Shown piece after piece: positions 3,001-62,921 of a stretch of DNA of 64,000 nt. The position numbers were made by a program, and so were the translations under genes. The notes beneath the pieces were generated by a model. That model was not told the DNA's origin, did no database searches, and saw only the letters and a program-made list of their open reading frames with translations. Each line of letters starts with the position of its first letter. Positions within the stretch are counted from its first letter, which is position 1. This stretch comes from Bugula neritina (Eukaryota; Animalia; Bryozoa), in NCBI GenBank assembly GCA_964035545.1, contig OZ037769.1:8537929-8601928 (forward strand). Direction: 5' to 3'.

Positions 3001-3450
3001 AACCCTTCGCTCTTCTACTACATGGTTGACAGGCATTGTCTCTACAGCATTGTCTCTACGCTCACCTTCTACTGCCGGTGGTTGCATTCCAGCGTTTTCA
3101 GTCTCCATCTTGGATGTGCACTATCCCACCGCTGCCACCACTGTTATGATTTTCAGTATTAGGGTTGATATGCAATCCAGAGAGTCTAATTACTTGCTAG
3201 AGAACTTCACCAGGATAAGTCGAGTAAATGAGTATATATTTTAACACAATAACACATTACAAAAACTATACAAATACATCTAATAATACACACATCTAGA
3301 CTATTCAGCACTCTAACTTCGACTGACTAACAGCGGGAAAACTACTACTGCTACTAACTATCAAAACCGCTAATTGGCTATCAATTGTTCCGGGTCAATT
3401 ACGCGACCCTGCGTACTGTGCTGCTGGTAGCTCCACGAGCCACCATACTA
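1..3450 (-). mobile_element. Gypsy/Ty3 LTR retrotransposon A (5' half: LTR, PBS, gag, protease, RT; runs off the window; inactivated)
   Basis: Minus strand: Gag with CCHC knuckle CWECGNQGHFRRYC (2155-3108, in-frame TGA at 2746-2748), protease FLIDSG (1520-2038), RT motifs WRFCVDYRKLN, LDLLSGYWQV, PFGL and YLDD (~480-790). PBS at 3123-3140; LTR from 3142. The LTR outer end (~3450) is approximate. Confidence 0.95.
3123..3140 (-). promoter_or_regulatory. Primer-binding site complementary to the tRNA-Leu 3' end (element A)
   Basis: Minus strand TGGTGGCAGCGGTGGGAT, 1 nt inside the LTR end; same 18-mer in element B (38489-38506). tRNA-Leu assignment from the known 3' end AUCCCACCGCUGCCACCA. Confidence 0.85.
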
Positions 3451-4370
3451 TTTAGAATTCAAAATTCATTTCAATCTTAACTCTATACTTTATTATTGCA
3501 GATTTCTTTACTCAATTACAATTCAAATATAGCTCCATTATCTAACAAAAAGCTTGATGAAGTTAGCTAACTTGTAAAACTCATGCATAGTAACATTTAT
3601 AGTTTAAGTTTCAGACCTGTTATTGGCACATCTCTACAAGTTAACTTTTCCAGTTTGCTTACATTGAACGTACACCACACTCTTTATATACAATATCTTT
3701 TGCACTGACTGTTTATGTTAGTGTTGCACTTTGATTACTAACAACTCTTGATGATTTTGATTTAATTATTCATTTTCGATTATTATTGTAATTTGCAGAT
3801 TATATGGGTAGCTCAAGATATATTGTGAGGTGTATTGGATATTATTTATCATATACGTTTAAATTGGAAGGCAGAAGTTGAACTTTATTCTCACGCACTG
3901 GCATATAACATCAAACCTCCTCTTTCCTTCTTTTTATAATTCATTATTATAGACGTTACTAGTTGATTATAAAGCAAAAATAGCTCTATTACCTTTTAGA
4001 AAAAAATTATTTTGAATCTAATTATAGCTAAGTTACGGACCTGAATAGAGTAGTTCTCTTTTTATTTCAAAGAATGTTTGCTTTAGCTTTTACTTAGCTT
4101 TCACCTTTTATATGTTTCTTTGCACTAAACACTAGCACAGTCTTATACATTCACTGAACGAATTAAGCTAAAAAAACATAGCTAAGTGTATGACACATCA
4201 AGAAGGAAGTTAGTAGAGTATGCTAATCAATTCAGTTTCTTCAAGTCAAATACGCACTCTTAAAAACTGAAATCAACAACATAACAGAAAAGAAAAGCTA
4301 CTCGTTGACTGCACATGGTACATCAATATACTGACTATCACTTACTCTAAAAAGAGTACATGACTTCATC

Positions 4371-30865
<26,495 letters not shown>

Positions 30866-31954
30866 ACTCATAGTATTTCAGTATATAATATGTTATGTTT
30901 ACTCTAATTTATACTACTAGTTTAAAAAAACTCTCTGACACCCTGGTTTATAAAATTATTATATTACATTTACTTTAATGTATATATATTAATGATTAAT
31001 ATAAAGCTCATATTAAAAAAGACAATGGATGTAATGGATAAATAACATTGGATGCATTATATTGTTTAGTGGCTTAATAGAGCACTTTTATATAATGCTT
31101 TCATATTTTATATATAATATTGAGTATATGATATAATATATCATTTTCACTAATTTACACTACTATTTAAAAATAATTCACTGATGCCTTGGTTTAGAAA
31201 TATTATTATAATACATTCACCTTAATCTAAAATCATGCACTAAAACATAGCTCACACAATTTTAAATGCATTTTATTATTCAGTATGTTTAGGCACATGT
31301 TACATCTTTATATATTTATATAATATTATAAATCTACCTTTGTTGTGCGATGCACAATGATTATGTGGGCTTTCTAGTGAGCAATTAGCATTTATCCTCA
31401 AGCAATCTGACTGTAGTTTCGTTTGTAAGCTTTATTATAAACCATAAAATATAACATGAAAATATCTATAAGTATCACCGTAATTGCTACTTTACATCGC
31501 TGCAAGTACACGCTAACTAACTAAAATATTGTTCTGCTTGGCTTAATCCAATAGTTGCCAATCACTCTCTGTGATTGGCAGGGGGATACGCGTGAGGCGT
31601 AAACCATGCCCCATTACACCGCCCCCCCCCCAGCAGGAAGCATACCTTCCTGATATGCACCCACAACAACAAAAAAATATAAAACAAAATACTATAAAAA
31701 AAAACCAAAAAAATATAAGATCTGAACATCACGTAAGGTGGACATATCTCCAAAAGAATTTACACACTATTGAGCAAAATTACGTATTGACATAAAAAAT
31801 ATAACAAAAAGAATAATACAATCCACATACGGAGATCATGTAGCACCGAGATCAGATACAGCCGGAGGAGGAGTGAACGGAGAGAGAGAGAGAGATTGTC
31901 ACCACCTGCAGGTGCGGATAGTTAGAGAAGTGGAGAGGGAGGATACTGTCATCA

Positions 31955-33049
31955 TCAGTCTTGGTCGCCTCGTTTGAGTAGGGCCACGGAGGCTTTGAGA
32001 GTCCTCATCTCCGAGGCGGCTGCGGCAACTCTGGGGGTTAACTGTTGAATTTCAGCTTCTAAGTCGTACATGCGGAGTTCAACTTCTTTCAAGTTGCGAG
32101 CGATGGGAGCCTGCCGTTTTGGGGAGGAGGAATGCCAGCGGCGTTTAGAAGAAGGTTGTATAGAAACAGGAGAGGGGGAGCGTTGTTTCCGAGGTATCTC
32201 GACTCTTTGGAGCAGGACTCGAGGTAGGGTGGTGGGTCGAGGTACAGTCTGTGCTGGAGGAGAGTGGGGTGGCTTTGTAGGTTTCCTGTGTCTGGGGGGT
32301 TTCGAACACGGTCCATGAGTGATGATGCGAGGGGAGGGGAATTCTTGTTTCAGTCGTTCGAAACGGGGGAGGTCTTTAATGAAAGGCTTGATCAGGTTGA
32401 GGAAGGTGGGGAAGTTATATTGATCCACATCATATAGGTGCCCCACATGGCATTCCATGGTGCGCTGGTGTCTGAGGATGTAGTCCCTGTGGTAACTAAA
32501 TTCACCACAGGGACAGAGGGTAGTTAAGAAGTGTTGCGGTACATGGACGCGCAAACGGCGATGGGTAGAGAAGTGCTGCTGACACAGCCTGCAGGTGGTG
32601 CATTCATCATGGCCGCGGTGTAGCTGAATCTGCTCTTCTGTTTCTGGTGCGACCCAGCTATGTTGTTGGAGTAGCACGTCAGGTAGAGATGTGGGAGGTG
32701 TCTCCCCGTTCCAGGCTAGCTCTAGTGGAGGCATGTCTCCGTAGTTGGGAGAGCGAGTGGCGTCTAAAAGAGCAGAATTCTTGTTAGATCGAATTTGATC
32801 TTTACAGCATAATTCTGATGACAATCGACTGTTACTAGTCTGAGAGTCATGCATCTTTTTATACGGCACTCGAGAGACTGTGTCAGAACGTGTAAACTGA
32901 CTGAGAGACATAGTATCAAGCTCCAGATCTAGTAGATCGTCCGCCATTACTATGTCCTCGTCGTCATTCACGTGTGACTCTGTCTCCAGTAACTGTGATT
33001 CAATCAGATCGATTAAATCAGAGTTGACTGAGGTGAGATCTATTTCCAT
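31955..33049 (-). CDS. Element B accessory ORF3: acidic N-terminus, C2H2-type zinc fingers, Pro/basic region, C-terminal coiled coil (364 aa from ATG)
   Basis: Uninterrupted ORF between integrase and 3' LTR. CRLC-x12-H-x3-H, then CPC-x12-H-x5-CH; heptads LKEVELRMYDLEAEIQQL..MRTLKASVALL; no signal peptide or TM. Confidence 0.85.
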   Translation of the reverse strand: MEIDLTSVNSDLIDLIESQLLETESHVNDDEDIVMADDLLDLELDTMSLSQFTRSDTVSRVPYKKMHDSQTSNSRLSSELCCKDQIRSNKNSALLDATRSPNYGDMPPLELAWNGETPPTSLPDVLLQQHSWVAPETEEQIQLHRGHDECTTCRLCQQHFSTHRRLRVHVPQHFLTTLCPCGEFSYHRDYILRHQRTMECHVGHLYDVDQYNFPTFLNLIKPFIKDLPRFERLKQEFPSPRIITHGPCSKPPRHRKPTKPPHSPPAQTVPRPTTLPRVLLQRVEIPRKQRSPSPVSIQPSSKRRWHSSSPKRQAPIARNLKEVELRMYDLEAEIQQLTPRVAAAASEMRTLKASVALLKRGDQD

Positions 33050-33091
33050 TAGTGGAGTGTTAGATCTAAGCAAGCTTACTTGGGAACTCGG

Positions 33092-33099
33092 TATTTATA
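33092..33099 (-). promoter_or_regulatory. Candidate internal TATA box for ORF3
   Basis: TATAAATA on the minus strand in the short gap between the pol stop (33135) and the ORF3 ATG (33049). Confidence 0.5.
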
Positions 33100-33134
33100 C
33101 TCATACTCGACGTTCAAGCTTGGATGTGGATGGA

Positions 33135-36100
33135 TTAAAAAGCACGTCTACTCTTGACCGCGTCGGCGTAGGAAAAGGCTGGGCAGCGTGTTTGTTGTGC
33201 GAGACCGGAACTGTGTGCCCGGAGAGTGGTAATTCCACTCGCTATTCCGTTTTCGCAAAACTTGGTTTTTCCGTGGTGTTCATAACTCCCACGCTTTGCT
33301 GCCAGTCTTTCCGTACGGCGCCCAGCTGAACTTTCATACCTGCCGCTTGTAATGCGGTCGCATACGAAGTCTTGAAGATAAGCTGGGGGTCTTCTAGTAC
33401 GTTGTCCCCTTTCAAGGGGGGGAGGTGTACTAGTGGTAGACGCCGGGGAAGGTGGGGTAGCTGGTGAGGGAGGTGGTGTACTCACCAGTGGGTTGTTATT
33501 CTCCACTGGTGGTGTTTCCTGCCTCCCGTCAGCTGTCATTCTCTCTTCCCCTATGTTCTCTCCGGACGGAGCCCCTCCCGTGGGGGGGTTTTGCACTTCC
33601 GGAAGTATATTTAGTTCCGGAAGTGGTGGTGGTAGTCCTGGGGCCGGACGGCTTGGCTCTGGAAGCAGAGGGTGGGGCCCCGTTGGGGGGGTGGCCTCTC
33701 CTGCCTTGCCAAGTCTTCTGTCCGTGGCATGACCCACTCATCATTGGGTTTATGCCGCCGCCGCCCGCGCATCGTTGTCTGCCTCCTGGGCTCTAACAAT
33801 GGGGGGGCACCCCCGGCCGCACCTGGGCTAGCCCAATAGGGTTTCAAGCGGGCTTCATTCTGGACAAATACTTGTCCAGACCGCTCCAACTTGTAAGTGT
33901 GATTGGGCATCACCTCAACTACCACGTAGGGTCCTACAAACTTAAGCTGTAGTTTAGCCGCCTGTCCTCGACGCCTACGGTAGTTGATCATCCAGACCCA
34001 GTCTCCGGTCTGGTAGAGGGGTGGCTCATCAGCGTCTTCCTGTCGCACCTGCCACTGCTTATCCCGCAATATTTCGTGTGCGACTTTCAGACGCTCTATG
34101 AATTCCCCAGCGTACTCGTGGACAGAGTATTCTGGCTCTGGGATATGATAGGCGAGGTGGTCGGGCACTCGTGTCTCACGACCGAGTGTCAAGAGGTTGG
34201 GGGTCTCGCCGGTGCTGGTATGTGGCGTGCTGCGGTAGGCCCGCATGACCTGCGGCAACACGAGATCCCACTCCTCCTGGCCTCGGCCGAGTAGTAGACT
34301 GCGGAGTGCATCGCCCAGCATCCGGTTGTTGCGTTCGACCACTCCGTTACCCTGAGGGTGGTATGGAATGGTCCTACTTTGGTTTACTCCCCAGAAGCGA
34401 CAGAGGTCGCTCATCAGTTGAGACTAGAATTGCGACCCCTGGTCCGAGTGTAGTTGCTCGGGCAACCCAAAGTAGCAGAATACACGTTGGTCTAGTGTGC
34501 TGGCCACTGTCGGGGCAGACGCATCCGGAATGGCCAGTGCGTCGGCCCACCTAGTGAAGTAGTCGGTCAGCACTAGAATCCAGCTGTTTCCTCTGGGGGT
34601 GATGGGCATGGGTCCGACCAAGTCAACAGCTACCACCTGCCAGGGCCTGCCAGCATAGAGCCTACGCCGTCCCGCCTCCCTGGGGAGACGGCCATGCTTG
34701 CTGGCCTGGCAGATTTCGCATTGTTTGATCCTTAGGCGGACGTCACGCTCCAGATTGGGCCAATACCACCGGAGCCTTAGCTTGGTAAGCACCCTCCGAA
34801 CTCCGGCGTGAGCCTGTCGGTGAGTGTCCCATACTAGCTCCCAGCGCATGGCGGTTGGACAGATCACCCTTTCTCGACCAGGGTGTTCCTGGTCGGCGGC
34901 CAAGGTGATGGTCAGCAGACCATCTGGCCCGATCCGCAGAGAGTCCCAGCGTTGGCAGTACAGCCGTAACTCGGCGCACCCCTGCCGCAGCTGTTCTTTG
35001 CTGGGTCGTCGCCCTTTCCGTTTAGCTCGATATATGTCGGCTACCACCCCAGGGAGGTCCTCCTGGAGTTTCTGCAGCTCTCTGACATTACGAGCTAAGA
35101 CAGGGTTGGCGCGGAGGTTGTTGACAGCCTCCGGTGGGTTAGGACTCCTTGGTTTGAGTTGACCTTGGTCCCAGTCGTAACTCACTCCAGGGTGGTCCAG
35201 TGTCGCCAACTCGGATCTTGGGGGACCCCCATCCCTCCTCTCAATGTTGTGACACTGTTTGCACCCCTCGTCCGGTCGCCGACTCAGTCCGTCTGCATTG
35301 CCGTGTTTCTTACCGGGTCGATGTTCGATCCGGTATGAAAATTCGGCTAGGACTTCGAGCCATCGGGCGACTTGACTGGACGGTTCAGCTCTCTTACACA
35401 GCCAGATCAAAGAGGCGTGGTCCGTCCGCAAGCGGAACGGCCTACCGTAGAGATAAGGCCGGAAGTGTTTCACTGACTTGATTACTGCCAGCAACTCCTT
35501 GCTAGTAGTGCAGTAATTGCGCTCTGGGGGTGTGAGTGATTTGCTGTGGTAAGCTCTGACTACTTCACGGCCTCCTTGCACTTGCGACAGCACAGCGCCA
35601 ACGTTCTGGTCACTGGCGTCCGTGTCAAGAACGTACTCCAGAGTGGGGTCTGGGTAGGCTAGAATTGGAGCCTCTAGCAAGCGGCTCTTGAGACTGTCAA
35701 ATGCCTTTTGTTCGTCGGACGTCCACTGCCAGGTCACTCCCTTTGCGGTGAGCCGATTTAACGGCTGTGCAACCCCCGCAAAGTCTGGTATGTATTGTCT
35801 GTAATACCCTACCAGCCCCTGGAAAGCCCGGTCAAATCCTGGGGGGTGACCCAGTCGGCCACAGCTCGCACCTTGTCGGGGTCCGTCGCCACCCCATTAC
35901 GGCCGACTACGTGCCCCAGGTACTTCACCTCCGGCTGCAAAAGAGCGCATTTGGAAGGTTTGAGCTTGAGACCGGCACCTCGGAGTCGCTCGAAGACCTC
36001 TCGCAGACGACTGACATGGGTCGTGAAGTCTGGGGAGATCACGATGACATCATCGAGGTAGACAAGCAGCATCTTCCAGTGGAGGCCGCTGAGAACCTGT

Positions 36101-36650
36101 TCCATGAGCCGCTGGAAGGTAGCAGGAGCGGAAGTTAACCCGAAGGGCAGTACCTTCTACTTCCACAGCCCATCTCTGGTGATGAACGCCGCTTTCTCCT
36201 GGGCGTCGGGACTGAGGGGGACTTGCCAGTAGCCACTCAGCAAGTCTAAAGTACTGAAGTACTTGCTGCAGGCTAAGGCGTCCAGGGACTCGTCGATCCG
36301 AGGTAGAGGGTAGGCGTCCTGTATGGTTACGCTATTGAGTTTGCGGTAATCCACACAGAACCGCCAACTGCCGTCTTTCTTCCGGACCAGAACGACCGGC
36401 GAGCTCCACGCACTATGTGCAGGCTCTATGAGGCCGCGGTCCAGAAGATCCCGGACTTGTCGGCTGACCTCCTTCTCCGGCCCCAGTCTCCTAGTGGGTT
36501 GGCGGATAGGCAGAGTCCCGGCAGCTAGCGGTATCTCGTGACGGACGGCTCTAGTCAGGCCCACGTCCTGGTCTCTGCTGCTGAACACGTCCCCATACTG
36601 GCGCAGCAACTGGGCCATAGCTTGGCGCTCCTTGTTGCCCACACAGCCTT
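33135..36650 (-). pseudogene. pol: Element B pol (RT, RNase H, integrase with GPY/F and Pro-rich tail), disrupted
   Basis: YLDD, LDTDAS, RNYCTT, HHCC (H..AH..CEIC), VDLVGP, HSDQG, NGVVER, FVGPY, RTRRPPAYLQDFV. Stops at 36157-36159 and 34424-34426; frameshifts near 36690, 35820 and 33700. Confidence 0.93.
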
Positions 36651-38455
36651 CACAGGCTGACTGGTATAGTTCTTGGACGTGTTCCGAGACGGTCCCAACG
36701 CCGCACAGATGGGCGCTCTTGGGGACCCTCCGTCGCCTCGCCCAGCGACGGTCCTATGTCTCCCTCTTGGACCGTGTGGAAACGGCCCAATAGGGATCCA
36801 GATGGTAATGTCACCGACTCTGAAAAGGGGTTGACGCACTGCACCAAGATCTCCCCTCGGTCAGTTAGCCGGTTCAAGCTGCTGGCGAGTTGGATTCTCT
36901 TGTGCGTTCCTTCAACGACCCCTAATCCAGAGAGTTGGCGGTCATTCACTCTGCAGTGAATGGTCGCCCGGGAGCGGCCGGGTACCGTACAGTTACGTAC
37001 TACCTGCACACCCCCGACCAAGGGACGACCGAACTTATCGACACAGGAAAGCTCCCGGCCGGCCATTAGTATGGCGGACTTATGGAAGTCCATGTGGCAT
37101 TGGTGTCGCTTCAAGAACGGCGTCCCCAGGATGGCATCCTCTTCCAGCTGGCTGAGGATAAAGGTTTCCTGGATGGCCTGGTCGCGGACGCGGCCAGGCA
37201 GCTCTACAACACCGTAGAAGGGGATACGTGACCCGTCTGCGAGGGTGCCAGGTTCCCCGGTGTAGGGAGCTAACTCCTTCCTCACCTGGAGAGGGAGGGC
37301 ATCGAAGACTCGTCTGCTGAGGAGATTCGTGTTGCAACCGGAGTCTAGCAAGAACGTGACGGCCTTGCCGGCTACCTTCCCGGGCAGGAAGTAGCTCTCT
37401 CCATGTGGTTGCGACCTTACTTCCCCAGCATGCGTAGTCTCGGTCAGACGGCGTGGTTTCCGTTTGGTGGCCTGCTGGTGCCGCTTCTTCGGCGGAGGGG
37501 TGTTTAGTTCCCCTCCGATGTCCCGAGGGACCTCGCCGGCCAGCTCCGTCTCCGGTAGCTGGCTGAAGCGGTTAGTGATTGGTAGCACGAACGGTTCCTG
37601 TCGTCCGATAGGGCGGATGGTCCGTCGTGGTATCTGCCATTCACGGGGTACGTCCCGTGGTTGCTCTCTCTTCGGCCCGTGAGGCCTCTTCCTGGGTTGG
37701 GGGTCTATGGAGCGGGGAGGCCCTGGCTTGCCGCTTTTCCTACTCCGGGTAGTCTTCCCTGAGGTCTCTCCCTTTTGTCCTCGGTTAGGGGGCCCGGCAT
37801 TGGTAAGGGTCTTTGCCATCTGCTTCAGTCTGACGCTCAGCCGGCCCATCTTCTCCCCGAGTGATTGGGCTACCTCCGCGGTGACTCGTGTGCCTTCTGT
37901 TTTCTCCGTATATGGCTGCTCGGCCCGGAGGTAGTCTTCCCCGACTTGTAGGGCACTTTCTAGGGTGGTCACTCCCTTCGCCTGTAGTTGATGGCAGAGA
38001 CCCACATCTTTTAGGGATTGCATGAAGTCAATGAGAGTAAAGTTCCGTCGGTGTGCTTCTGGCAGGTCGCTGTACGCGCTCCGTGCCAGTCTCTTCACTA
38101 AGGCAACGTGGTCGCGGAGCGGCGTGTTTTCCGCCTGGCGTAGCACTTGTAGACGGGCCCTGGCTTCCAGGGCGGAGGTGCCAAACCGGCTCCGTAGTGC
38201 AGTAAATATCTCCGCCACGCTCCGTCCTTGTCCGAACGGTCTAGCGCGCTCCATCAATACCTCCCGCAGCTTGACGAGGGCTACTTGTGGCGGCCATTGA
38301 GCGATGTCTGCCACATCGTGGAATTCCTCAATGAATTGCTCTACATCTTCTACACTCGTGAAGGTGGGAGCGGTCAGTTTATCTCTATACACCTCCTCCA
38401 TATGCAAGAAATTGGCTGGCTTACCTCCCGGGTGTTTCATTGTGTGCTCTGTCAT
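36650..38455 (-). CDS. gag: Element B Gag-protease in-frame fusion (no zinc knuckle)
   Basis: Capsid-like region homologous to element A Gag (VEQFIEEFHDVADIAQW..LRSRFG), basic linker, FLLDSG protease motif. Confidence 0.9.
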   Translation of the reverse strand: MTEHTMKHPGGKPANFLHMEEVYRDKLTAPTFTSVEDVEQFIEEFHDVADIAQWPPQVALVKLREVLMERARPFGQGRSVAEIFTALRSRFGTSALEARARLQVLRQAENTPLRDHVALVKRLARSAYSDLPEAHRRNFTLIDFMQSLKDVGLCHQLQAKGVTTLESALQVGEDYLRAEQPYTEKTEGTRVTAEVAQSLGEKMGRLSVRLKQMAKTLTNAGPPNRGQKGETSGKTTRSRKSGKPGPPRSIDPQPRKRPHGPKREQPRDVPREWQIPRRTIRPIGRQEPFVLPITNRFSQLPETELAGEVPRDIGGELNTPPPKKRHQQATKRKPRRLTETTHAGEVRSQPHGESYFLPGKVAGKAVTFLLDSGCNTNLLSRRVFDALPLQVRKELAPYTGEPGTLADGSRIPFYGVVELPGRVRDQAIQETFILSQLEEDAILGTPFLKRHQCHMDFHKSAILMAGRELSCVDKFGRPLVGGVQVVRNCTVPGRSRATIHCRVNDRQLSGLGVVEGTHKRIQLASSLNRLTDRGEILVQCVNPFSESVTLPSGSLLGRFHTVQEGDIGPSLGEATEGPQERPSVRRWDRLGTRPRTIPVSL

Positions 38456-39998
38456 GTTCTTCGTCTTTTCATTGTCTCAGCTAGAATAATCCCACCGCTG
38501 CCACCACTGTTGTGCGATGCACAATGATTATGTGGGCTTTCTAGTGAGCAATTAGCATTTATCCTCAAGCAATCTGACTGTAATTTCGTTTGTAAGCTTT
38601 ATTATAAACCATAAAATATAACATGAAAATATCTATAAGTATCACCGTAATTGCTACTTTACATCGCTGCAAGTACACGCTAACTAACTAAAATATTGTT
38701 CTGCTTGGCTTAATCCAATAGTTGCCAATCACTCTCTGTGATTGGCAGGGGGATACGCGTGAGGCGTAAACCACGCCCCATTACACCTTTTACATGATAT
38801 TATTCCTGTTTGCTCATTTTTATGTCAATTCACATAGATCATAATAATAATAATGATAATAGTATGCTTTGCTCATAAATGATGTAACTAACAAAAGCTC
38901 TAAATCTGTAGGTTGCAGTAAATTTTTGTTGTAGTATTTTTAATAAAAATAAAGGATGATAGGTCATGTACAAATTCTGAGAAAGTATTTGTCTAGTAGC
39001 ATTTAGTATAAAATGCTTGCAACATACTGTTTGTAGCGGTTTGAGTGGGAATTAGGCTCCCTCTCTCAATTATAAAACCCTGTTGTTAAGCTGCTAACAA
39101 AGTAACATGTATAAGTGTAGGTTCCCGATATGTTATGTTGGCACATCTCTACAAAATTAAATTTTCACTTTTCCAGTTTGTGTATGCTGAACATGAAATC
39201 CTATTAGGCTATTTATATCAAATGTTTTTGACTCTGCCAATTTGAAAGTTTAGTACCTGTACTGACCGTTTATGTTAGTGTTGTACTTTGCCTTATAATA
39301 ACTTTTGGTAGCAATTTTGATTTAATTATTTATTTTAGATTATTATTGTATTGTAAAGTATTTCAGTAGCTCAAGATACTTATACACAGCGTATCTCAGT
39401 TTATTTATTATATATTTGAATTGCAAGGCAGAATTATAAGGCAAAGATAGCTCGACTTTATATTTTAGAAAAACTCTTCTAAATATAATTAGCCAACTTA
39501 TGAATCTGAAAAAATAGCCCCTTATTAGCTTAAAAAATGTTTGCTTTAGCATTCGCTTAGTTTCAAGCTATCGGACAGTACCCTTTTGCTTCTTCTTATT
39601 GCACTCCTTTTTTTTAGCTCAGCTTAAGATTTTTAATTTTATTTCTTTTTCTTTCTATGTTTACCATTAGAAGCAATAAATTGAAAACAACAACAACAAT
39701 AACAACCCTTTCTATGTTCCTTTGTTACACACTTTATTTGCACTGAACACTATAGCATAGTCCTATACATTCACTGAACAAATTAAACTAAATAAAAATA
39801 ACTAATTAGTGTATTTAGCACATCAAGAAAGAAGTAATTAGTAAAGTATTTGCACCAGCTTTGTTTCTTCAAGTCAAATACACACTCTTGATAACTGAAA
39901 TCAACAAAGTAACAGATAGGAAAAGCTACTGGTTGACTGCACCTGGTACATTAATACACTTACTATTACTCACTCTAAGAAGAGTACATGATTCCATC

Positions 39999-42900
39999 AT
40001 TATATTCCTGAAACGTTTGCAGTATTACTCTACCAACATTTCTGTTACTCTACTTTGTTGCGAATACAAAAGGAAGTAAGTAAAAATCATATATTATAGG
40101 CTACTCATTATGGTTGCTTGTTTAGATGAGATTCTCTGGGTGTATTTAGGAAAAGTTGATTTCTTTAGCTTAGAAATATTTTTTATAAACATGGCATCCA
40201 TCAAGTATACTTCTGCTGCAAAAATTTCCTAAAACAAGTTTTGCATTCTCCCAGTTTATGTCTAGCTTTTTTTCTAACATATTTTTAAACTTAAATTTAT
40301 AGTACCATCATTACATAATATACTTTGTGCACATAATACTTGCTCTGTAAAAGTGCTATATATAGCTTGTTTTCAAGCTTAAATGGCATAAACATAGCTA
40401 CTTTTTATTATTTATTATTTAACTTTAGCCGTTCAGATATTTAAATTCTATACCATCAAATGATATATTTTAATTGTAATTGCATATATAGCAGTTAATG
40501 TACTTTTTTGAGAAAAATTACCATGCAAGAGCGTGTCCATCTATTTAATCAACTTTATTCTTAGATGAGAGAAAATATGCAGAGAAATTGTCTGGTTTTG
40601 TTATTCAGGCGTATAGAAGAAATGAATTGTGAAACAAATGGCAGACCAACCTTTATCTGTAGTGCATGACATCAAATATTTGCTCAGAAATGGAGAATGA
40701 GCTTTGCATCTTTTGACAGCAATTAAAAATCTATCAAAAAACAAAGCAAGGATCTGCTCCAAATAACCATTGTAATAGTGGATGATGACAGAGATGGTAC
40801 GATAACTAGATGAGGTTTTGATTCACCATGCTACAACCAACTCCCAGATTGTATGTACTGCATGCTACATTTCTACTTTCACTTCTCCAAACATGTAGAT
40901 AAGAGGATAAGAATTGATTTGGTAGACAAATACTTTGTTGCAGAGATCAGTGTATTTACTGGTTAGTTGTTACTGAATTATCATATTATGCTAGGTTGTT
41001 ACAATCATTTGCTGTTTCTGTAAAACATCTTGAAGTATACAAAATAATACGTTTTACTCAATACAATGCTTGAATACTTCTCCAAACAAAATGCATTTGC
41101 AACAAATGTATAATTTTTTGTATATGCTTTCCATATTCAACTGCTTTACTTTATGTTTTAATGTCAACTATATAAAGTTTACGTCTTACTATACCTATAA
41201 TGAGTTATATTCAGTAGGTCTATGTGAATCATGTTTTTTTGTTGTTGTTATAGTCAACATCTATAGATATAATATGCTTGTGTAATTCTTGTGAATCAGT
41301 TAAGGTAGATTTTACAGTGCTTTTATCAGTTTATATTTTTAGTAGTTTTATACCATATTAATCAAAATGTAATGCATTAAAAGTCAGCCCATCATATTGC
41401 ATCTGATGGCGTGTCATTATAACAATGTAATAATAATATATTGTAAGATTTTGTTTGATTTCATAATTGAGGTTACGCTATTTGTAGACAAAGCTATTGT
41501 TTTATGAAAAGCCTAAAGTGCAGCTTTTCAATACTAGTTTGCATGTAATAAGAGCTTAAAGTTCAAAGGATGCACTAACTAAGAAAGCACTTATTGTACA
41601 AGCCTTGTTTTTGCCGCGATTCTAACAATTAAAGAAAATAAATTCAATACCCCATTATTAGCTTGATCTATGAAACAATACCAAACTGTGGAAGATTGTG
41701 GTGAAATACATATTGCTTCTAAATTTGAAAATGTACATAATTGCATTAGTCACTATAAATATTAAACCTGAGTTATTTAACAGTGTTGTCAAATAATTTT
41801 TTTTTGAATAAATGAAACATCAATTAAGCAAAGCATGTCATATGCAGATTTCATGTCCAACAATTTTCAGGTGGCCGGTTTTTTTGCGACATTTGACTAG
41901 AATAAAGATAGTAACTAACCCCTACACTGTCAATGTGAATCCAGTCTATCACAAGAGTTATTGGAAGGGTGTCTATTATGAAGGAAGGGCATCATATCAA
42001 TGGAATGCTAACATCAAACCAGCTTCACTCTGTCTCTATCTTGCTGTGGTGAGAGAAACTTCTGGTGGATTAACTCTCTCAGAAATTGAGGTGTTTGGAT
42101 ATAGTGGGTAATAATATACTGATACATATTGAAGTGCTGAATTTCATGAAATAAGAAAATACTTTATTGAAATGAATATTATGATAAAATTGTTAATACA
42201 TCTATCTAAGCAGTAATAACTTCATGAAAATGTTGAAGAAACCTCTATACTTATAGTGGCAAAATTGTTTTTGATGAAGTATATCAATTGAAAGGTTTCC
42301 TGAAATGACGAAAGTTTTACTATATAGTGTTGAGTATTTAATTTTATTTAATGTTGTTCTTAGCAACAATTTAACATCCTTCCCAACACAATAATTCGTA
42401 GCGTTATGTGAAAAAATTTTCAGCCATAAACAAAACTTATTCACAAAGATGGACAGTTTTATATAATAATAATAGCTTTCCAAAAACATCCTACTCATAA
42501 CCATGTTCACACAAGGTTTTTGACCATATTCAAATAAAGTTCCATAATAATTAAGACAGCTGCTTATCATATTAAGTTTGACCACAAATTTTCTTTACAA
42601 TTTTTATAAGAAATAGTACTGCATAGAGCTTTAATTGTTTATCAACAGCTCTAGCAGATTTTAAACATTTTCGTAAATATACAAATCAAATAAAAGCTAT
42701 ATATGTATAAAATAATTGTTGCACCATTATTTATTGCTGTAGTTTTTGTGTGGAACTTCTTCATGGAAATCATCAGGAAGTTATACTTATGTTACTGTGT
42801 GTGGTCTGACACCTGCTGTAGGTCTACAGTGTAGAGTGAACTAGAGTCAGAATTGATGATATGTCATTCAAACTGAAATACATGCAAACCTACAGTGTTC

Positions 42901-45091: not shown

Positions 45092-46545
45092 TTGTTTTTT
45101 TGTTTGTTTGTTTGAATTTCCATCAAATAGTAGTTTATGTCATAGGTTGAAAAACAGAAAAAAATCAGTGATAAGGTCCATATGCACAATAGTGAAGCTA
45201 GTCGAGGTGCTTGACCCAGAGGTAGCAGCCAGCAGAGCCCGCACGACGCAGACCCTAAATCAGTGAGTCAAGCAGGAACTGCTTCAAGGCCACCGCAAAC
45301 TCACTCCTACTTCGTATCTCCCTCAGGTGCTTTGGGAGGGAATTTCAGGCGTCGGCCACCTGATAGGTAACCTGTCTATGGCCACGCGCAGTAGTGAAGA
45401 GTGGCAAGGAGAGACTGAGAGGAGCATGTCTGGTTGGGTAGGAAGGAAGGTAGTTAGATGCTAGGCATAACGAAAATTCAGAATGGGCGAGTAGACAAAT
45501 TCAAAGTTTATAGAGTTCATAAATTGGTAATATTTTAAATTCTTTATATAAAGGTGCTGCGTGAAATCGAGGTGGTTTGTGAAAAATTATACGAAGTAGT
45601 CTATTTTGAATAGTTAAAATTTTATCTAGGTAAATGGATGGGGCATTGCCCCAGACTTCTAAGCAATATACAATTTTACTATTTATTAGGCTATTATATA
45701 ATAGAATTAAAACTTTGCGAGGTAGGAAGGTGGAAGCTACATAGGTCAGTCCCAGATTTTGGCGTAGTGTATTTCAAAGGTTTTCAATATGGGTAGCCCA
45801 ATTTAAATTTTTATCAATTGTGATTCCTAGAAATTTGATTAATTCTGCATTGTTAATTTCGGTATTGTTTATAAAAAGAGGTTGGGAGATACGAAATTTA
45901 TTTTGCGGATTCTTAATAATAATGAAATTTGTCTTTTCGATGTTGAGGGTTAATTTGTTTGCGAAGCGCCAGATCTTTATTCTTTCAAGATTTCTATTTA
46001 TTGTTTGAATTTCGTCATTAAAATTTTTGCTATGAAAAAGAAGATTTGTGTCATCGGCAAATAAGATGGTGTTAAAGAATTGCGCACTTTTAATTAATTA
46101 AGTCATTTATATATAGTAGGAATAATGTAGGACCTAAAATCGAACCTTGCGGTACCCCACAACTGATCTTTAGCAGAGCTGAGGTAACATTGTTTAGGAA
46201 AACGCATTGAGCTCGGTCACTTAAATAGTGCTGTATTAGTTTGACAGACTCATTAGAAAAATTTACACTACTCAGTTTTTTAGTGAGAATATGGTGATCT
46301 ATTGTATCAAAAGCTTTTGAAAAGTCTATAAAAATTCCAAGGACAACCAAACTCGAGTTTAGGGCGGAAAACGCATTATTAGCAAATTTAATCAGAGCAT
46401 CGTGAGTTCCCTTCAATTTTTGGAATCCGTATTGGGAGCTTGATATTATTTGTTCATCATACAAATGATTTTTAATTTGGGTGTTGATAACTTTCTCGTA
46501 AATCTTTGAAAAAATAGGTAGGATCGATATAGGTCTATAATTATA
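45092..46545 (-). mobile_element. 5'-truncated CR1/L2-group (Crack/Daphne-like) LINE
   Basis: NYRPISILPIFSKIYEK, QYGFQ, FIDFSKAFDTIDH, GVPQGSILGPTLFLLYINDL, LFADDTNL, C-terminal NSLPKHLR..LKQFL; (CAAA)n tail at 45092-45115. Confidence 0.9.
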
Positions 46546-49330
46546 GTCATTTCCTCTAGTCATTTTCTCTAGTCATTTCCTCTAGTCTAGCTTGAAGCAG
46601 ACTCTGAGACTTGCTGGTGTCTTTCTCCGTTGCTACTTTCTGAAGTCTGCCAGTTTGCTGTGGCAGGAGTTTACCCTTCTGTATATTAGCTGGGTTACCA
46701 TTGACTACATTGATGGGTGCTGTGCCATTCACATGCACACTGGGAGATGTCTGCAGTGCAACAGTGGCGGATCCAGAACCCGATATAAAAGCTTTGCTGT
46801 CAGCTTTTAGTTTAGATGAAAGAGGGGGTAGGAGAAGTGCCGAGGCTTTTTAAAATCTTGTTTTACATCGGCTGATGCAGGAGGTGATAAACTTTGTCTC
46901 TTCAGTAGTTTCTTAGTAGACACAGCGGATGTCTGACTTTGTTGTGACTCATTACTGCATGCACTCAGTGACCTTTCTACATTCTCTCTGGCTAGAGCTG
47001 TGTGTAATTTAGACTGAATATTTCTAGGTGTATCCTTAAGGGGGCCTTCGCGTTCTCCTCTATTTCCTTAGTTACACCAGCCCACTTACTCTTAGGCTTA
47101 CTCTTCCGGATCACAGGCTTGATGAGAGGATTTAACTTGTCTTTTGTAGCGAGTAAGAGTGGTAAAAGGCTCTCCCATGGTTTTGCAAGTTTGAAAGGTT
47201 TGCTGAAAGCAGGCATAGATTGTCTCTTCTCCGAGTTGCCATTCTTTATTTGCAGTAGACTGGATTTTCTGCATTTAGTTGGAGCTTTGTTTACCCCTTT
47301 TGCAGTCACTTTAGATTTTGCTCTCTCATTGGCCGAGACAGGCGTGAAATGTGTGATAGAGGTACTACTAGTAAATTCATACTCTCTTTTATTCCCTATC
47401 GACATGGACACAAGGTCATTGACTTCTAAAGATCGGTTTAACTGTTCAGAACTGGTTTGTTCTGCAGACTCAATGACTGGGTCTCCCGGGCAGGAGGTTC
47501 ACTGTAACTGGTCTGAGTCATCAGCTGACTCATTCATCCAACATCCAGTGGCTGTAGTCTGGGACTCGCTACAAATTATAATAGCCTGAGGCCTAGTTTC
47601 TATGGTCTTAGTGACATTGAGGGAGTTGCAGTCACTATTGCATAAACTATATGTAAAATTTACTGAGTTTGAAAATGCTTCTAGCTCTTGATTGGTCGAT
47701 TCAGGGGTCGAATATGAGCTCATGTTGACCTCTGCATCTCGGAGTCATTGAGGGCTGGGGAGTTGTTTCCATTTACTAACTGACCCTTCATTTGGATAAA
47801 CGTCTTGCTTGAAACTGAGACTACATGTGTATCATTACTAGATTTCCTTTTATCAACTGAGGTGTTCATATTCACATTATAACCGTCAGATTCCTGCTCT
47901 AAGTAGTACACAATGCCAAAAGATACGTTTCCACAGGTAGAGTTATTACTACTAGAGCTGCCACGTTTACTTTACCTTGTACCAGATAACTTTGAAAATG
48001 ACCTTATGAACTGACTAGGAGACGCGTCGGGACTATTAACACTGTAGGCCGCCAGAGAAACTGTAGACAAGTCTAGATTACAGCCGTTGAGCGTGTCCTG
48101 AATGCTTTCATGTTGCATATTATATACTCTACTATATGCATTTTATATACTCCGCCGCATGCTGCCATACGTACACTGTTCACTTTTCTGTTTCACAGTA
48201 TGGTTGTAGTGGCAGCCAAGTTTTTCAGAAAAAATGCTTTCAACTTCCTCCAAATTTTTATGCATCATGGTAGCCTGGACATGGAAATATGAAGATGGAA
48301 GTGTAGAAAAGTTGCTAAGGGCCGGGTGTGCTCCTTGCACACACAGTCCAAAAGGTCTGGAATATACATAAAAGTGAGGTCTCGCTTGATCAACTTGGTG
48401 TTTTGGATACATATCCAAGAAGATCGCTACCAATTAGCAGGTCGATAGGTCCCGCCTTCTTTAATAGCTTGTTAGTGTCTACTTTTGGGAACAAAAACCC
48501 GAGGGTGTTTGCATCAAGTGGCCTGTTGATAGCCGCTGTGAGTTTCTGAAGACTGTAAGCTAAAATGGTAAAAGTCCTTCCTTTTTCTAGTCTGTAACTT
48601 TATTTTATAAGTAGTAGAAGTTTCGTTAGCTTTATGTTCACCAAGTGTGTTCATTTCCAAATTCACCTTAGCTATCTGCCGTGCACCCCACGCTCTATCA
48701 GCTCTCTTCAATATAAACGGAGCATTAGATCCTCCGTCGAAAATATAAGAGCTGGGTGAAATGTACCCACTACTTGGGCCTGCTGCATGGCAAATACTGT
48801 AGCGTTACCTAGATGATTGTGCACTCCATGATTAGGAGACACATGGACTGTAGTGCTAACAGCAGACGCTTCAGAATTCTCGCTAATCTTGTGTTTAATT
48901 TGATCAGCTTTTACTTTATTCAACTTGGTATTAAAATTGATATGTGTATTAGTTTCAGCAGATTCAATGCACAATAACACATGGGGAGTTGTTTTGTTAC
49001 ACACTGAACAAGGGATTTGATAATTTACTAGCATTTAGGCTCATGAGCGCTCAAGCACCTAACACATAGAGAATTAATTTTTTATAACTTGTATCTTCCA
49101 TCTACAGACAACGCCAAGGAATTTCTGCACTCAACAAGACAATGACGTTTACTGTGATGAATAAAACAGTAATTCTTACTATCAATGAGTTTGTTATTAT
49201 TATTAAAACTGTTACTACTAGACTTTGGGCCACTGCTTTTAGTGTGGAACGCTTTCAGCTTCTGCTTATGCATGCTGGAGAGGTTTGACTAAAATGGGTG
49301 TCGCGAACAATTTTCGTTTTATTTTCAGAG
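46546..49330 (-). mobile_element. Degenerate BEL/Pao-like retrotransposon remnant (gag Cys array and protease region)
   Basis: CFIHHSKRHCLVEC..R..LC..CSVCNKTTPHVLLC resembles the BEL/Pao triple Cys-His array; VNLEMNTLG and DLLIGSD..PFGLCVQG follow. The 46550-48000 part is Ser/Lys-rich ORF debris that I cannot assign. No LTRs found. Confidence 0.5.
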
Positions 49331-60200: not shown

Positions 60201-62921
60201 CTTACCGTTTTAGAACCTTCCATTTCTCCAGCAACATTAAGAAGATTGCAACTCGAATGGATACAGTCTCCGACTGATCAAATGGTGAGAAGCTTCTAAT
60301 TTTATACTTTGCTTTAAAAACTAATATTTATATTAAGTTGCTGCAAAGAAAAATTGTCATTTTTAAATATTAAACTTTTGAAGAAAGTTTTGATTTCATA
60401 AATGTCGGTATAAAAATGATTAGGCCTATTTAGTTTTTGTCATAAAACTTATTTTTAATATAAAGTAATGTATGTAGTTGGGAACAATAACAATGTAGTA
60501 GCTAAAGTTGGCATTCAACATGTTTCTGTAATTGATATCACATTATCATTTAGATAAGACCATTATCATTTTAGGTAAAATGCTGAAAATTAGTTTTTTT
60601 GTAAGATATCTTTTAAATAAATTCAAGCATAAAAAGGTTAAATATGCAATAAAATATATTTAATAGTTTTTATAATATTATTATAATGCTAAAATATAGC
60701 TGACCTAAACAAAAATTTTAATTTTCATGAGAAAATAATTACTAGTGTATTAAAAAGTTATGATGAAATCAAGGAAAATTTCGTCACTATATCTCATAAT
60801 TTGATGCTTTTTTAGCTTAATAAGTAAAGCTAAACTCTGAACAATAAATAGCTTAACTTTGGGTTAAAGATATTTTACTCAAGGTGCAACTGAGCTGATG
60901 TGTTCTGTGAAACTTTTACTATGATTGCAACATGTGGCAATGATTTTAACCGCAGTAAATTGTTGTGAAAAACATGTTTTGATTGCAGGCTGAGCCTGTG
61001 GTACTTGTGAAAAAGGTGCAAACTATTTTAAGAACAACTCCTAGCATTGGTGAGCTAAAAACCTTTTTTATAAATTTCAGAAAGCTATTAAATTTTAACT
61101 TTAGTTTAGTGCTTATATATAAAGCTTGAGCAACATTTTAATGTTATTTCAGTGATGATTTGTGCTTTTTATTTACATAATGTAACATAAAATCATAAAA
61201 AAGTTTTGATTTAGTTGAAAATGTCTATTTTTTTATATAAGTTAGGTTTTTATATGCTTTAATGGCACATGTCATTGCTTTAAATATTTAAGAACCCTAA
61301 TTAAATATACCCAAATCAAAAACTTAGTTTCTAATTTTTCTGCAATAGTTTCATGTGACATAGTATATTACAGGGCAAGAATCAGTTGATACAGTAATGC
61401 TTAAAAAGTGCAATGACTTTTTACGACACCAAAGCCTCAGCGTTTATGTAACAAGTTGGAACTACATCTTAACTGGACTTTATGGGGCGTTTGCTGTTCA
61501 AGGAAACATGGGAGATATTTCAAGAATGGTTTCAATAAATCAAGAACAGTCACGTTACTATGTAGTGTCTATACAACAGTATAAAGACTATGTATTCACT
61601 TTGTTAGTGCGAGATTATGATTCTAAGCATGAAATTCGAATTTTTGATTCCCAATATCGAACATTGGCCAAATGGTTTTTCCCACATACTGCAAGAGTAT
61701 GCAGCATGGCTTTGAGTTGTGATAAGGTTTACTTAGCTGTTGATGGATCAGATAAGCTGCTCGTACACAAGTTTGTTAACAACCACATTCAGCAAGGCTA
61801 TATTCTGTCCAAGTTTTCTACTCTGTCGCATCTCAAGGCTGCCCCTCCTCATCACATTGTCATCTGTGACACTGAGGCTAGCTCAGTCTGCTTGCTAGAC
61901 TGCAGGAATGACACAATTGTCTGGTGTTCCACCTTCATCAATGGTCCAGTCTGCAGCTGCGTTGATAGCACTGGAGATGTTTGGATTGTCTCAAGAACTG
62001 CTGACTTTTTTCGGATACTGGACAAAGCTACTGGTGAGTGTTATAGTGGATTGTCTAATTCCATTATTTTAAAGCTTTTCTGCCACTTTTCAGTATTTTG
62101 TATCAATTGATAGTCTGAACCTTGGTTGCTGTAAATATGCTTCCTACTATATAGAGAAACATATATATTTCTCTCAGGCTAGATTATCAAAGATTCTTGC
62201 AAAATAACTGCTTTGCTAATATATCAGTAAACTATATTGTGTAATGTCAAAAAATTCCTTTTTATATATATCATAGTAACAGCACTGGGTTTTTACTCCT
62301 TGCTTATGACAACCGGTTGTTAAATTTAATGAGTACCTATAATAATCATGGTATGTATCGTGAGGCTAAAAATAGTTTGCAATATCAATTTTATTATTAA
62401 GTTGCTGCTGAGTAGAAATAATATAATGTTTATCTATATATAAAATATGTTCAAGTTCTAATAAAAATTTCTGTTATTATTAAAATTAAAGTTTCAAGTG
62501 CTACTTTTTCTGTACTGACCAAAATTAGGTATTTGAGTTTATATTAATTAAATCGTAGTTTCCCCGATTATTGTGGTATCATTTTGATCTGATTTTTAAG
62601 ACTGTTTGTCAAAACCTAAGTAATATGCTGCTTTAAATATTTATATAAATAAGTAATGAACACATTACTATAAAAAAAATTATTAAACAAAATTTGGGAT
62701 CAGCTTTCTATCTCATCGATTTGCCATTTTTGTCAACTTTTTGTTATACTGTTATAGGTCAGTTGAAGCAAAACGTGAATCACTCAAGACTCAAAAAGTT
62801 GACTATCACTAAAAACAAGTGTGACATGTTTATTGGAGACAATGCATTATGGGTAGCAATAGGCACAAGTTTGCCCGGACTTCTTAGGTTCCAGATTCAA
62901 AGGCAACAAGTTAAAACCTAA
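50502..62921 (+). CDS. TRIM-like E3 ligase: RING, two [B-box + coiled-coil] modules, low-complexity linker, NHL/beta-propeller-like C-terminus
   Basis: Exons 50502-50652, 51697-51852, 52383-52467, 53058-53196, 53295-53505, 54313-54468, 54771-54849, 55247-55388 (GC donor), 56182-56395, 56657-56724, 57581-57638, 58007-58086, 58414-58528, 58796-58860, 59838-59925, 60214-60284, 60989-61049, 61374-62033, 62758-62921; phases consistent. C3HC4 RING CGIC..CQH..CVGC..CSFC; propeller-like IVICD..V.LLD and [16 protein letters not shown]. Linker exons are less certain. Confidence 0.82.
50735..50820 (+). mobile_element. tRNA-derived SINE head
   Basis: A-box TGGTGTAATGG, hairpin CCGGC ttgcaa GCCGG, degenerate B-box GGTTTCAAGTCT; no clean acceptor stem. 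Confidence 0.55.
51086..51213. repeat. 21-bp minisatellite (TAACTAGTAGTGCTAGTAGCAG-like), about 6 copies
   Basis: Directly visible. Confidence 0.9.
55790..55981 (-). mobile_element. tRNA-derived SINE; a deleted copy of the same family lies at ~54520-54600 (+)
   Basis: Shared TCTAGGGGTTAG(G/A)GCGTTTGCCTAGT head, B-box-like GGTTTGAACCC and ATCCAGTCA..AATTGCT body. Confidence 0.6.
57053..57290. repeat. Compound microsatellite (CATATA)n/(TA)n/(CA)n
   Basis: Directly visible. Confidence 0.97.

Follow-up and report, generated by a model that had tools for sequence, protein, structure and literature searches.

What does an intact zinc-finger gene do at the 3' end of an animal Gypsy retrotransposon whose pol is broken? 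The question arises in a 64,000-nucleotide stretch of DNA (the window) of the bryozoan Bugula neritina (contig OZ037769.1, positions 8,537,929 to 8,601,928), in which a complete, young Ty3/Gypsy copy lies on the minus strand at 38785-31341; coordinates below are those of the window, and the features of this copy are all on that strand. Between its integrase and its 3' long terminal repeat (LTR), an open reading frame (ORF), ORF3, runs from an ATG at 33049 to a stop at 31955 and encodes 364 residues, as an earlier note made from the letters alone had described. It contains no same-strand overlapping frame of at least 100 residues and is followed by two more in-frame stops. The note took ORF3 for an element-encoded trans-activator or anti-silencing factor, an interpretation that our analysis partly supports. 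We find a gene in a defined place in its element, under selection, with a conserved zinc-ligand pattern, a coil and a long association with Gypsy pol. ORF3 is a conserved accessory gene of an animal Gypsy lineage, and there is, in our estimate, an even chance that its product is a nuclear regulator promoting the element's own transcription against host silencing.

Is ORF3 more than an accident of this copy? A word-index search recovered 68 relatives at 50-86% identity, none of them named, and a profile version of the search recovered 106. Fourteen relatives are full-length, with starts and ends that match those of ORF3, to which they are 62-77% identical; together with this copy their mutual identities span 55-99%. 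Numerous further members have breaks or run off the end of a contig, which is normal for a transposon family, and the sample is one in which gene callers report open copies preferentially. In a neutral simulation run to 67% identity, 0 of 600 frames remained open and 64% of the zinc ligands were kept; the observed retention of these ligands is 96-100% (86-100 covering sequences, of 120 used). Differences at the DNA level were taken from contigs of four runs on the region, whereby 21 of the 40 best-supported of 285 differences fall in ORF3. Fourteen of these 21 are silent and 15 of 21 lie at third positions, compared to an expected silent share of 0.23-0.31 (p from 3e-5 to 9e-4). On a tree of 28 sequences, the slowest sites are those of finger 2, a box at residues 276-283, the N-terminus and finger 1, and the fastest are those of the linkers. 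On this comparative evidence, ORF3 is a real, family-wide gene under purifying selection. The earlier note had set the open ORF3 against a pol with about five lesions. The five breaks in the gag-pol frame layout are there, but the contrast does not speak for selection because by length alone the chance that all five miss ORF3 is 0.39; the evidence comes from the other copies. These copies, the ligand retention, the excess of silent differences and the closure of all neutral frames answer two doubts that the note had raised about its own proposal, that ORF3 might be confined to one copy or evolve neutrally. Nor is ORF3 a recently captured exon of a named gene.

ORF3 also travels with Gypsy elements. 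A contig with 86 differences covers the LTR start, the polypurine tract, the 3' spacer and the 3' half of ORF3, and other contigs join the TATA-like signal upstream of ORF3 to its ATG or to the integrase tail. In addition to these bridging contigs, genomic context is available for 9 of 267 fetched relatives, which hold retroelement sequence in frame. One of the nine, P0076, continues in frame into a stretch resembling the polypurine tract and LTR start, at a score reached by none of 300 shuffles per frame; four (P0163, P0243, P0188 and P0218) open with integrase-tail sequence (for each, 0 of 1000 shuffles); P0185 has integrase joined to ORF3; and P0245, P0259 and P0257 have at their start a retropepsin that shares 36-41% identity with that of this element. 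By their sequence, these copies identify ORF3 as an additional ORF, placed after pol and before the 3' LTR, that keeps the same slot in diverged copies. P0245, P0259 and P0257 are long frames with a retropepsin and the double finger and no reverse transcriptase (RT) or integrase between them, possibly non-autonomous gag-protease-ORF3 elements.

The in-frame joins bear on one alternative, in which ORF3, as a cofactor of integration or nuclear import, would anchor the pre-integration complex on chromatin in the way that an integrase's chromodomain does. Its domain stands in frame with the integrase tail or protease in P0163, P0243, P0245 and P0257, and the ORF3-bearing copy and a second Gypsy element of the window lie at near-equivalent places of two paralogous host segments. 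However, the joins may reflect decayed copies or gene calling, ORF3 is here a separate frame with promoter-like signals, and two insertions do not prove targeting; we regard a cofactor role as very unlikely.

The ORF3 protein begins with an acidic hydrophobic N-terminus (residues 1-46, 32912-33049) that contains 16 D/E, no K/R and 18 large hydrophobic residues, has a predicted helix at residues 7-21 and evolves slowly (rate 0.69). Such N-termini are typical of activation domains. Residues 76-101 (32747-32824) are predicted to be disordered yet are as conserved as the fingers (0.86 column identity), and contig depth within ORF3 peaks there in three of four runs; this stretch is possibly a DNA-level signal or a linear motif. 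The folded double zinc-finger domain (residues 121-240, 32330-32689) is composed of a W-x4-T-x3-I helix, two fingers, a V-D strand and helices. Finger 1, C-x2-C-x3-F-x5-L-x2-H-x3-H with ligands C153, C156, H169 and H173, has the classical pattern of the beta-beta-alpha C2H2 finger that the earlier note recognized, though it falls below the Pfam cut-off. The second finger, given there as CPC-x12-H, is present too, but its ligand set is C179-x-C181-x12-H194-x5-C200, so that it is C2HC in this copy and C-x-C-x12-H-C/H in the family; at the eighth ligand, C200 is found in 86 of 86 and H201 in 48 of 84 close relatives. The pair is not a Kruppel-type tandem C2H2 array, as finger 2 is deviant and the linker consists of five residues unrelated to the TGEKP type.

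AlphaFold predicts the double-finger domain alone as a single compact domain (predicted local distance difference test score, pLDDT, 89; predicted template modelling score 0.80) and, for ORF3, disorder at the N-terminus and in the linker and a long helix at the C-terminus. Model residues 148-200 align with C2H2 finger pairs of Kaiso, ZNF524, SALL4 and others at Z scores of 3.0-3.5 (best alignment, Z 3.5 with a root mean square deviation of 3.0 over 58 aligned residues); such weak scores suggest a fold likeness to finger pairs and have no functional meaning. The family profile matches C2H2 proteins via finger 1 (E 2e-6), and the similarity-atlas neighbours of one relative, which are leads only, include C2H2 clusters at 0.87-0.90 and unnamed clusters at 0.95-0.96. 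Fold matches at Z 5.2-5.4 were to generic long helices and were dismissed.

C-terminal to the fingers, a basic K-R-R-W patch (residues 302-305, 32120-32146) with conserved S-P sites nearby is a predicted nuclear localisation signal; the RHRKP, SKRR and PKRQ patches and the acidic, hydrophobic N-terminus listed in the earlier note are all present. The terminal coiled coil that it proposed is found at residues 320-361 (31967-32092), with a/d positions conserved across six heptads and a model of one 49-residue helix with pLDDT above 90. In bZIP factors, a basic region with the pattern N-x7-R stands directly before the zipper. Membership of this class was rejected: the pattern is absent before residue 320, and bZIP_1 matches 2 of 68 members at E 0.15. 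Matches to the ribosomal eS25 profile (E 0.014) and to DivIC and other coil families were taken as chance. The protein has no hydrophobic segment (best 19-residue Kyte-Doolittle mean 0.76, and at most 0.96 in 15 full-length members) and is predicted to fold as zinc fingers plus coil; ORF3 is not Env, as the note had held from the lack of a signal peptide or transmembrane segment.

How far does this architecture extend? A full HMMER profile search returned 248 clusters at E 0.001 or better, 150 of them listed, down to ~25% identity. From 166 sequences covering both fingers we took 70 cores with less than 70% mutual identity, 58 of which are less than 50% identical to ORF3. These 58 distant cores follow the pattern W-x4-T-x3-I ... 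C-x2-C-x(9-12)-H-x3-H-[FYW] ... C-x-C-G-x2-S-x2-R-x2-[VI]-x2-H-Q ... V-D, whereby seven of the eight ligands are present in 55-58 of 58 and the eighth is aligned as C in 36. Among 65 distant proteins searched with Pfam, the C2H2 model matched in 2 at E 0.001, and otherwise only protease and one UBR-type finger were found. Judged by these alignments, the ~100-residue double-finger domain is old and has no Pfam family of its own. The part upstream of it is net acidic in 23 of 27 distant members, the part downstream net basic in 29 of 40, and the C-terminus coil-like in 28 of 40 (1-7 in shuffles). Because the acidic, basic and coil parts recur in distant members, the whole layout noted earlier is conserved beyond the fingers. 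After the fingers, a short [FY]-x-I-P-[KR] motif recurs in distant members, P0231, P0245 and P0248 among them (3 of 40; 0.1 in shuffles).

The domain also occurs in annotated proteins: Watersipora subatra XP_067940963/4 (two domains) and XP_067944745, and B. neritina KAF6040922/3, these bryozoans being the only organisms named among 30 proteins looked up. Three bryozoan proteins have in common an extra N-terminal piece (0 of 500 shuffles), which, as it is found in both genera, suggests that they are true host genes. Matches of 22 residues to RT in four bryozoan-cluster proteins (E 0.003) were taken as chance. In an unrooted tree of the domain (77 rows, 127 columns), bryozoan proteins appear at three separate positions, and rows linked to retroelements lie to either side of the midpoint split (support 90/79). 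Because the tree is unrooted and many of its forks are open, elements may have captured the domain from hosts or hosts may have domesticated it from elements; that bryozoan hosts did the latter repeatedly is our guess. The host proteins could be taken to mean that ORF3 is a captured piece of a host gene, passive cargo of no use to the element: P0126, an annotated bryozoan protein, is 35-39% identical to the ORF3 core, and the tree is compatible with capture. Yet the frame is under purifying selection within the element family, and retroelement-linked members flank the deepest split, which implies long retention whatever the origin. Passive cargo is thus largely refuted already and, in our judgement, highly improbable.

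The slowest 8-residue window of the disordered linker contains P276-R-V-L-L-Q-R282 (residues 276-282, 32204-32224), in which P, V, L and R are kept in 27, 27, 28 and 27 of 28 sequences. PxVxL is found in 52 of 59 covering close relatives, a conserved box in a disordered region. This motif is the ligand of the HP1 chromoshadow domain (PMC7465937). The HP1 box of KAP1/TRIM28, P486-R487-V488-x-L490-E491-R492, likewise lies in a flexible linker, and P-R-V-x-L-x-R, with P, R, V, L and R, is common to both; the likeness is limited to these seven residues, and KAP1 is a host co-repressor (PMC12126490). By this resemblance, the ORF3 box is a predicted HP1 chromoshadow ligand.

Signals upstream of the frame suggest how the gene might be expressed. 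A TATA box-like TATAAATA at 33099-33092 (consensus match), which the earlier note had placed ~43 nucleotides (nt) before the ATG, lies by our measurement 42 nt upstream of it; the sense strand of the 6.9-kb internal region has one other match to TATAWAWR. An initiator-like 7-mer (33063-33069; consensus match) follows, with a predicted start at A 33067, 32 nt past the first T of the TATA. In 20,000 shuffles of the 600 nt upstream, the two at this spacing occurred in 0.2%, the TATA alone in 3-4%. The second TATAWAWR site lies at 32863, inside ORF3.

From these features we infer a mechanism in five steps. ORF3 would have its own short RNA that starts at the TATA/initiator pair and ends in the 3' LTR. 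The basic patch would bring the protein to the nucleus, where the coil would dimerise it and the double finger would bind element DNA or chromatin. Co-activators would then be brought in by the acidic N-terminus, and HP1 would be bound at the PxVxL box and displaced or diverted. As a separate small gene, ORF3 would act in trans on all copies of the family, those with a dead pol included. A still broader version, in which ORF3 is a chromatin regulator of an old animal Gypsy lineage that locates element DNA and switches off host heterochromatin silencing through its HP1 box and acidic domain, the first protein anti-silencer of an animal transposon and later domesticated as bryozoan host genes, is speculative and in our view doubtful.

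Several observations weigh against a role as activator or anti-silencer. The initiator-like letters, in which a few pyrimidines precede TAG, may alternatively be a 3' splice site (consensus matches), so that the message could start at an internal promoter, which the TATA and initiator-like pair fits, or could be spliced. The PxVxL box was noticed post hoc, after the alignment had been seen; 16% of shuffled ORF3s contain a bare PxVxL by chance (0.3% the longer form), and the strict form is no commoner among distant members (2 of 40) than in their shuffles (mean 1.9). Loose PxVxL occurs in 15 of 40, compared to 8.3 in shuffles (4 of 500 as high), largely in one sister clade. The strict box is limited to the close family. 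As the HP1 box of KAP1 works in silencing, that of ORF3 could indicate the opposite role. In finger 2, in the linker of five residues and in the helices on either side, the domain is unlike DNA-reading C2H2 arrays; fold searches of the PDB and of viral models gave nothing significant, Foldseek had no hit below E 0.5, and the core has no match of Z 5 or higher. Finally, a repeated target motif of the VANDAL kind was not found in 31341-33400 and the 5' LTR at seed 8, a search that shorter motifs would escape. The finger pair sits in a larger compact domain unlike ordinary C2H2 arrays, and an RNA-export or an HP1-recruiting repressive role fits the same anatomy.

The possible splice acceptor just upstream of the ATG would fit a reading of ORF3 as a factor like Rev or the CERV protein, which would bind unspliced element RNA with its zinc domain, oligomerise by its coil and carry the RNA out of the nucleus. 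CERV, encoded in the same slot of the Cer1 element, has a leucine zipper, a nuclear localisation signal, a candidate nuclear export signal, a zinc site rich in cysteines and an S-P phosphosite that is essential (PMC10309623), and ORF3 has a coil, a basic patch, conserved S-P sites and a pattern resembling an export signal at residues 35-44. The latter is present, however, in only 7 of 14 full-length relatives, the ORF3 fingers are of a C2H2 type that CERV does not have, and export needs neither a TATA/initiator pair nor a chromatin-type PxVxL box. RNA export by ORF3 seems unlikely, although it is the leading alternative.

The box itself would also serve a self-limiting repressor, a single chain with the parts of both a KRAB-ZFP and KAP1, that attaches to element DNA, brings in HP1 and so limits copy number or times expression. 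It matches that of KAP1, the fingers are of a DNA-binding type and are joined to a coil, and annotated host proteins carry the domain in two bryozoan genera, as expected if hosts kept a repressor. But the strongly acidic hydrophobic N-terminus, of activation-domain type, is kept family-wide, and the strict box is restricted to the close family; we consider self-repression quite unlikely.

The copy that carries ORF3 has the hallmarks of a complete Ty3/Gypsy element: LTRs, a primer-binding site, a polypurine tract, a target duplication and the pol order protease-RT-RNase H-integrase. The LTRs (38785-38508 and 31618-31341) are 278 nt each with 2 differences and TG..CA ends, flanked by a 4-bp target duplication, AAGG (38789-38786 and 31340-31337). 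The primer-binding site (38488-38506), which we take to match the 3' end of a leucine tRNA, is followed by gag-pol (33135-38476), in six pieces with five breaks (three frame changes, two stops): gag-protease (38476-36650), RT (36753-36157 and 36156-35809), RNase H-integrase (35896-34424), the integrase C-part (34423-33611) and a proline-rich integrase tail (33737-33135). Pfam finds protease, RT, RNase H and the integrase zinc and core domains in Gypsy order in the element frames, with rve, zf-H2C2 and SH3/GPY-F-type matches in the integrase frames. A polypurine tract with a G run (31619-31631) precedes the 3' LTR. Because the LTRs are near-identical while pol is broken, the copy suggests mobilisation in trans, or else assembly errors. 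Contig depth is 1,112 over the TATA/ATG contig and 54-68 in the flanks, which fits many copies and is not a measure of copy number. Among the sequencing runs that contain the sequence no RNA run was listed, which carries no information on expression. The GC content is 50-60% in the element and ~30% in the flanks, which are those of an AT-rich animal genome.

A second Gypsy element in the window, element A, has a pol 79% identical to that of the ORF3-bearing copy (element B) and an identical primer-binding site after an LTR that differs. The two lie within a few hundred bases of the equivalent position in two paralogous host segments ~75% identical to each other (1-3450 plus 3586-5631, and 35577-41243), a hint of insertion preference. 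The duplicated host segments contain exon-like frames (5011-5385, 30479-30865 and 40814-42111), with a weak F5/8-type galactose-binding match (E 0.004) and a membrane-like frame, and are likely tandem lectin-type receptor genes. Elsewhere in the window are a Tc1/mariner-type helix-turn-helix piece, LINE-type endonuclease and RT pieces and a WD40-like frame (7619-7990, 14476-15168, 46090-46572 and 61364-62110). Nested perfect inverted repeats of 91, 87, 73 and 67 nt that flank a long (TA)n tract (22615-24105) are either a fold-back element or an assembly artefact. No tRNA or Rfam genes were found in the 64-kb window.

Scans with the ORF3 alignment over metagenome and viral contigs, and with integrase pieces and the primer-site pattern over viral contigs, gave no confirmed relative. 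In metagenome contigs the primer-site scan led to 24 loci, of which 7 have pol matches; tblastn and the profile detected ORF3 in none of them (best E 0.056). One locus, L004 (4429-9540), is a more distant Gypsy element with the shared primer site and 49% RNase H identity; its sense frames after pol, of 168 and 366 residues, are acidic, without a Pfam match and unrelated to ORF3, and are a candidate for another accessory gene. In three further loci with the shared primer-site pattern (L007, L018 and L019), integrase matches precede RT matches on the same strand, presumably the order of Gmr1-like Gypsy elements.

How does ORF3 compare with known systems? Foamy-virus Tas/Bel1 is the product of a 3' accessory gene with an internal promoter, an acidic activation domain and a nuclear localisation signal, in Retroviridae that also have env. 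To our knowledge, neither Tas/Bel1 nor other complex-retrovirus trans-activators have C2H2 fingers, and viral fold models gave no match to ORF3 at E below 0.39. Extra non-Env genes in the same slot are described for nematode Cer1 (PMC10309623), plant Grande and Retand (PMC7264820, PMC11963269) and rotifer elements (PMC5408684). CERV of the Caenorhabditis elegans Ty3/Gypsy element Cer1 resembles ORF3 in being a non-Env ORF that lies after pol and before the 3' LTR of an animal Gypsy, with a leucine zipper, a nuclear localisation signal, a zinc site and S-P sites; it is nuclear, is joined to gag exons by splicing, contains a site of the C4 type and a domain resembling G proteins, and exports RNA (PMC10309623). 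By description, ORF3 is set apart by its self-contained frame, C2H2-type fingers, TATA-like signal and PxVxL box. Grande gene23 and Retand TRP28 are conserved extra genes located past pol and ahead of the 3' LTR, with their own promoter and a nuclear product proposed as a regulator; these plant ORFs are antisense, with TRP28 or no known domain, whereas ORF3 is sense, animal and zinc-finger (PMC7264820, PMC11963269). Pfam finds no TRP28/Transposase_28 match in the ORF3 family. Oikopleura Tor elements have an internal env promoter in the same slot (PMC4402516), whose product is a membrane glycoprotein, while ORF3 has no hydrophobic segment. The third genes of bdelloid rotifer LTR elements (Env, TM, GDSL, DEDDy and CC) show that such genes can be varied and non-Env in invertebrates, but they encode enzymes or membrane proteins and are typically spliced; zinc is not mentioned in that text (PMC5408684). 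In its role, the proposed ORF3 protein is comparable to VANC of VANDAL DNA transposons, which provides element-encoded, family-specific relief of silencing, although these are plant DNA transposons in which VANC acts on DNA methylation via tandem motifs (PMC6719617).

In the open-access literature we found no paper on a C2H2-type third gene of an animal Gypsy, subscription journals, supplements, Repbase and GyDB lying outside the search. The ORF3 family is a real, conserved and apparently so far undescribed accessory gene family. Its double-finger domain, without a Pfam family and present in annotated bryozoan proteins, may have been exchanged between element and host. The usual view of Gypsy elements is that of simple replicators with gag-pol(-env); if the lineage has indeed retained a regulator gene for long, it would count as complex in the sense used for retroviruses.

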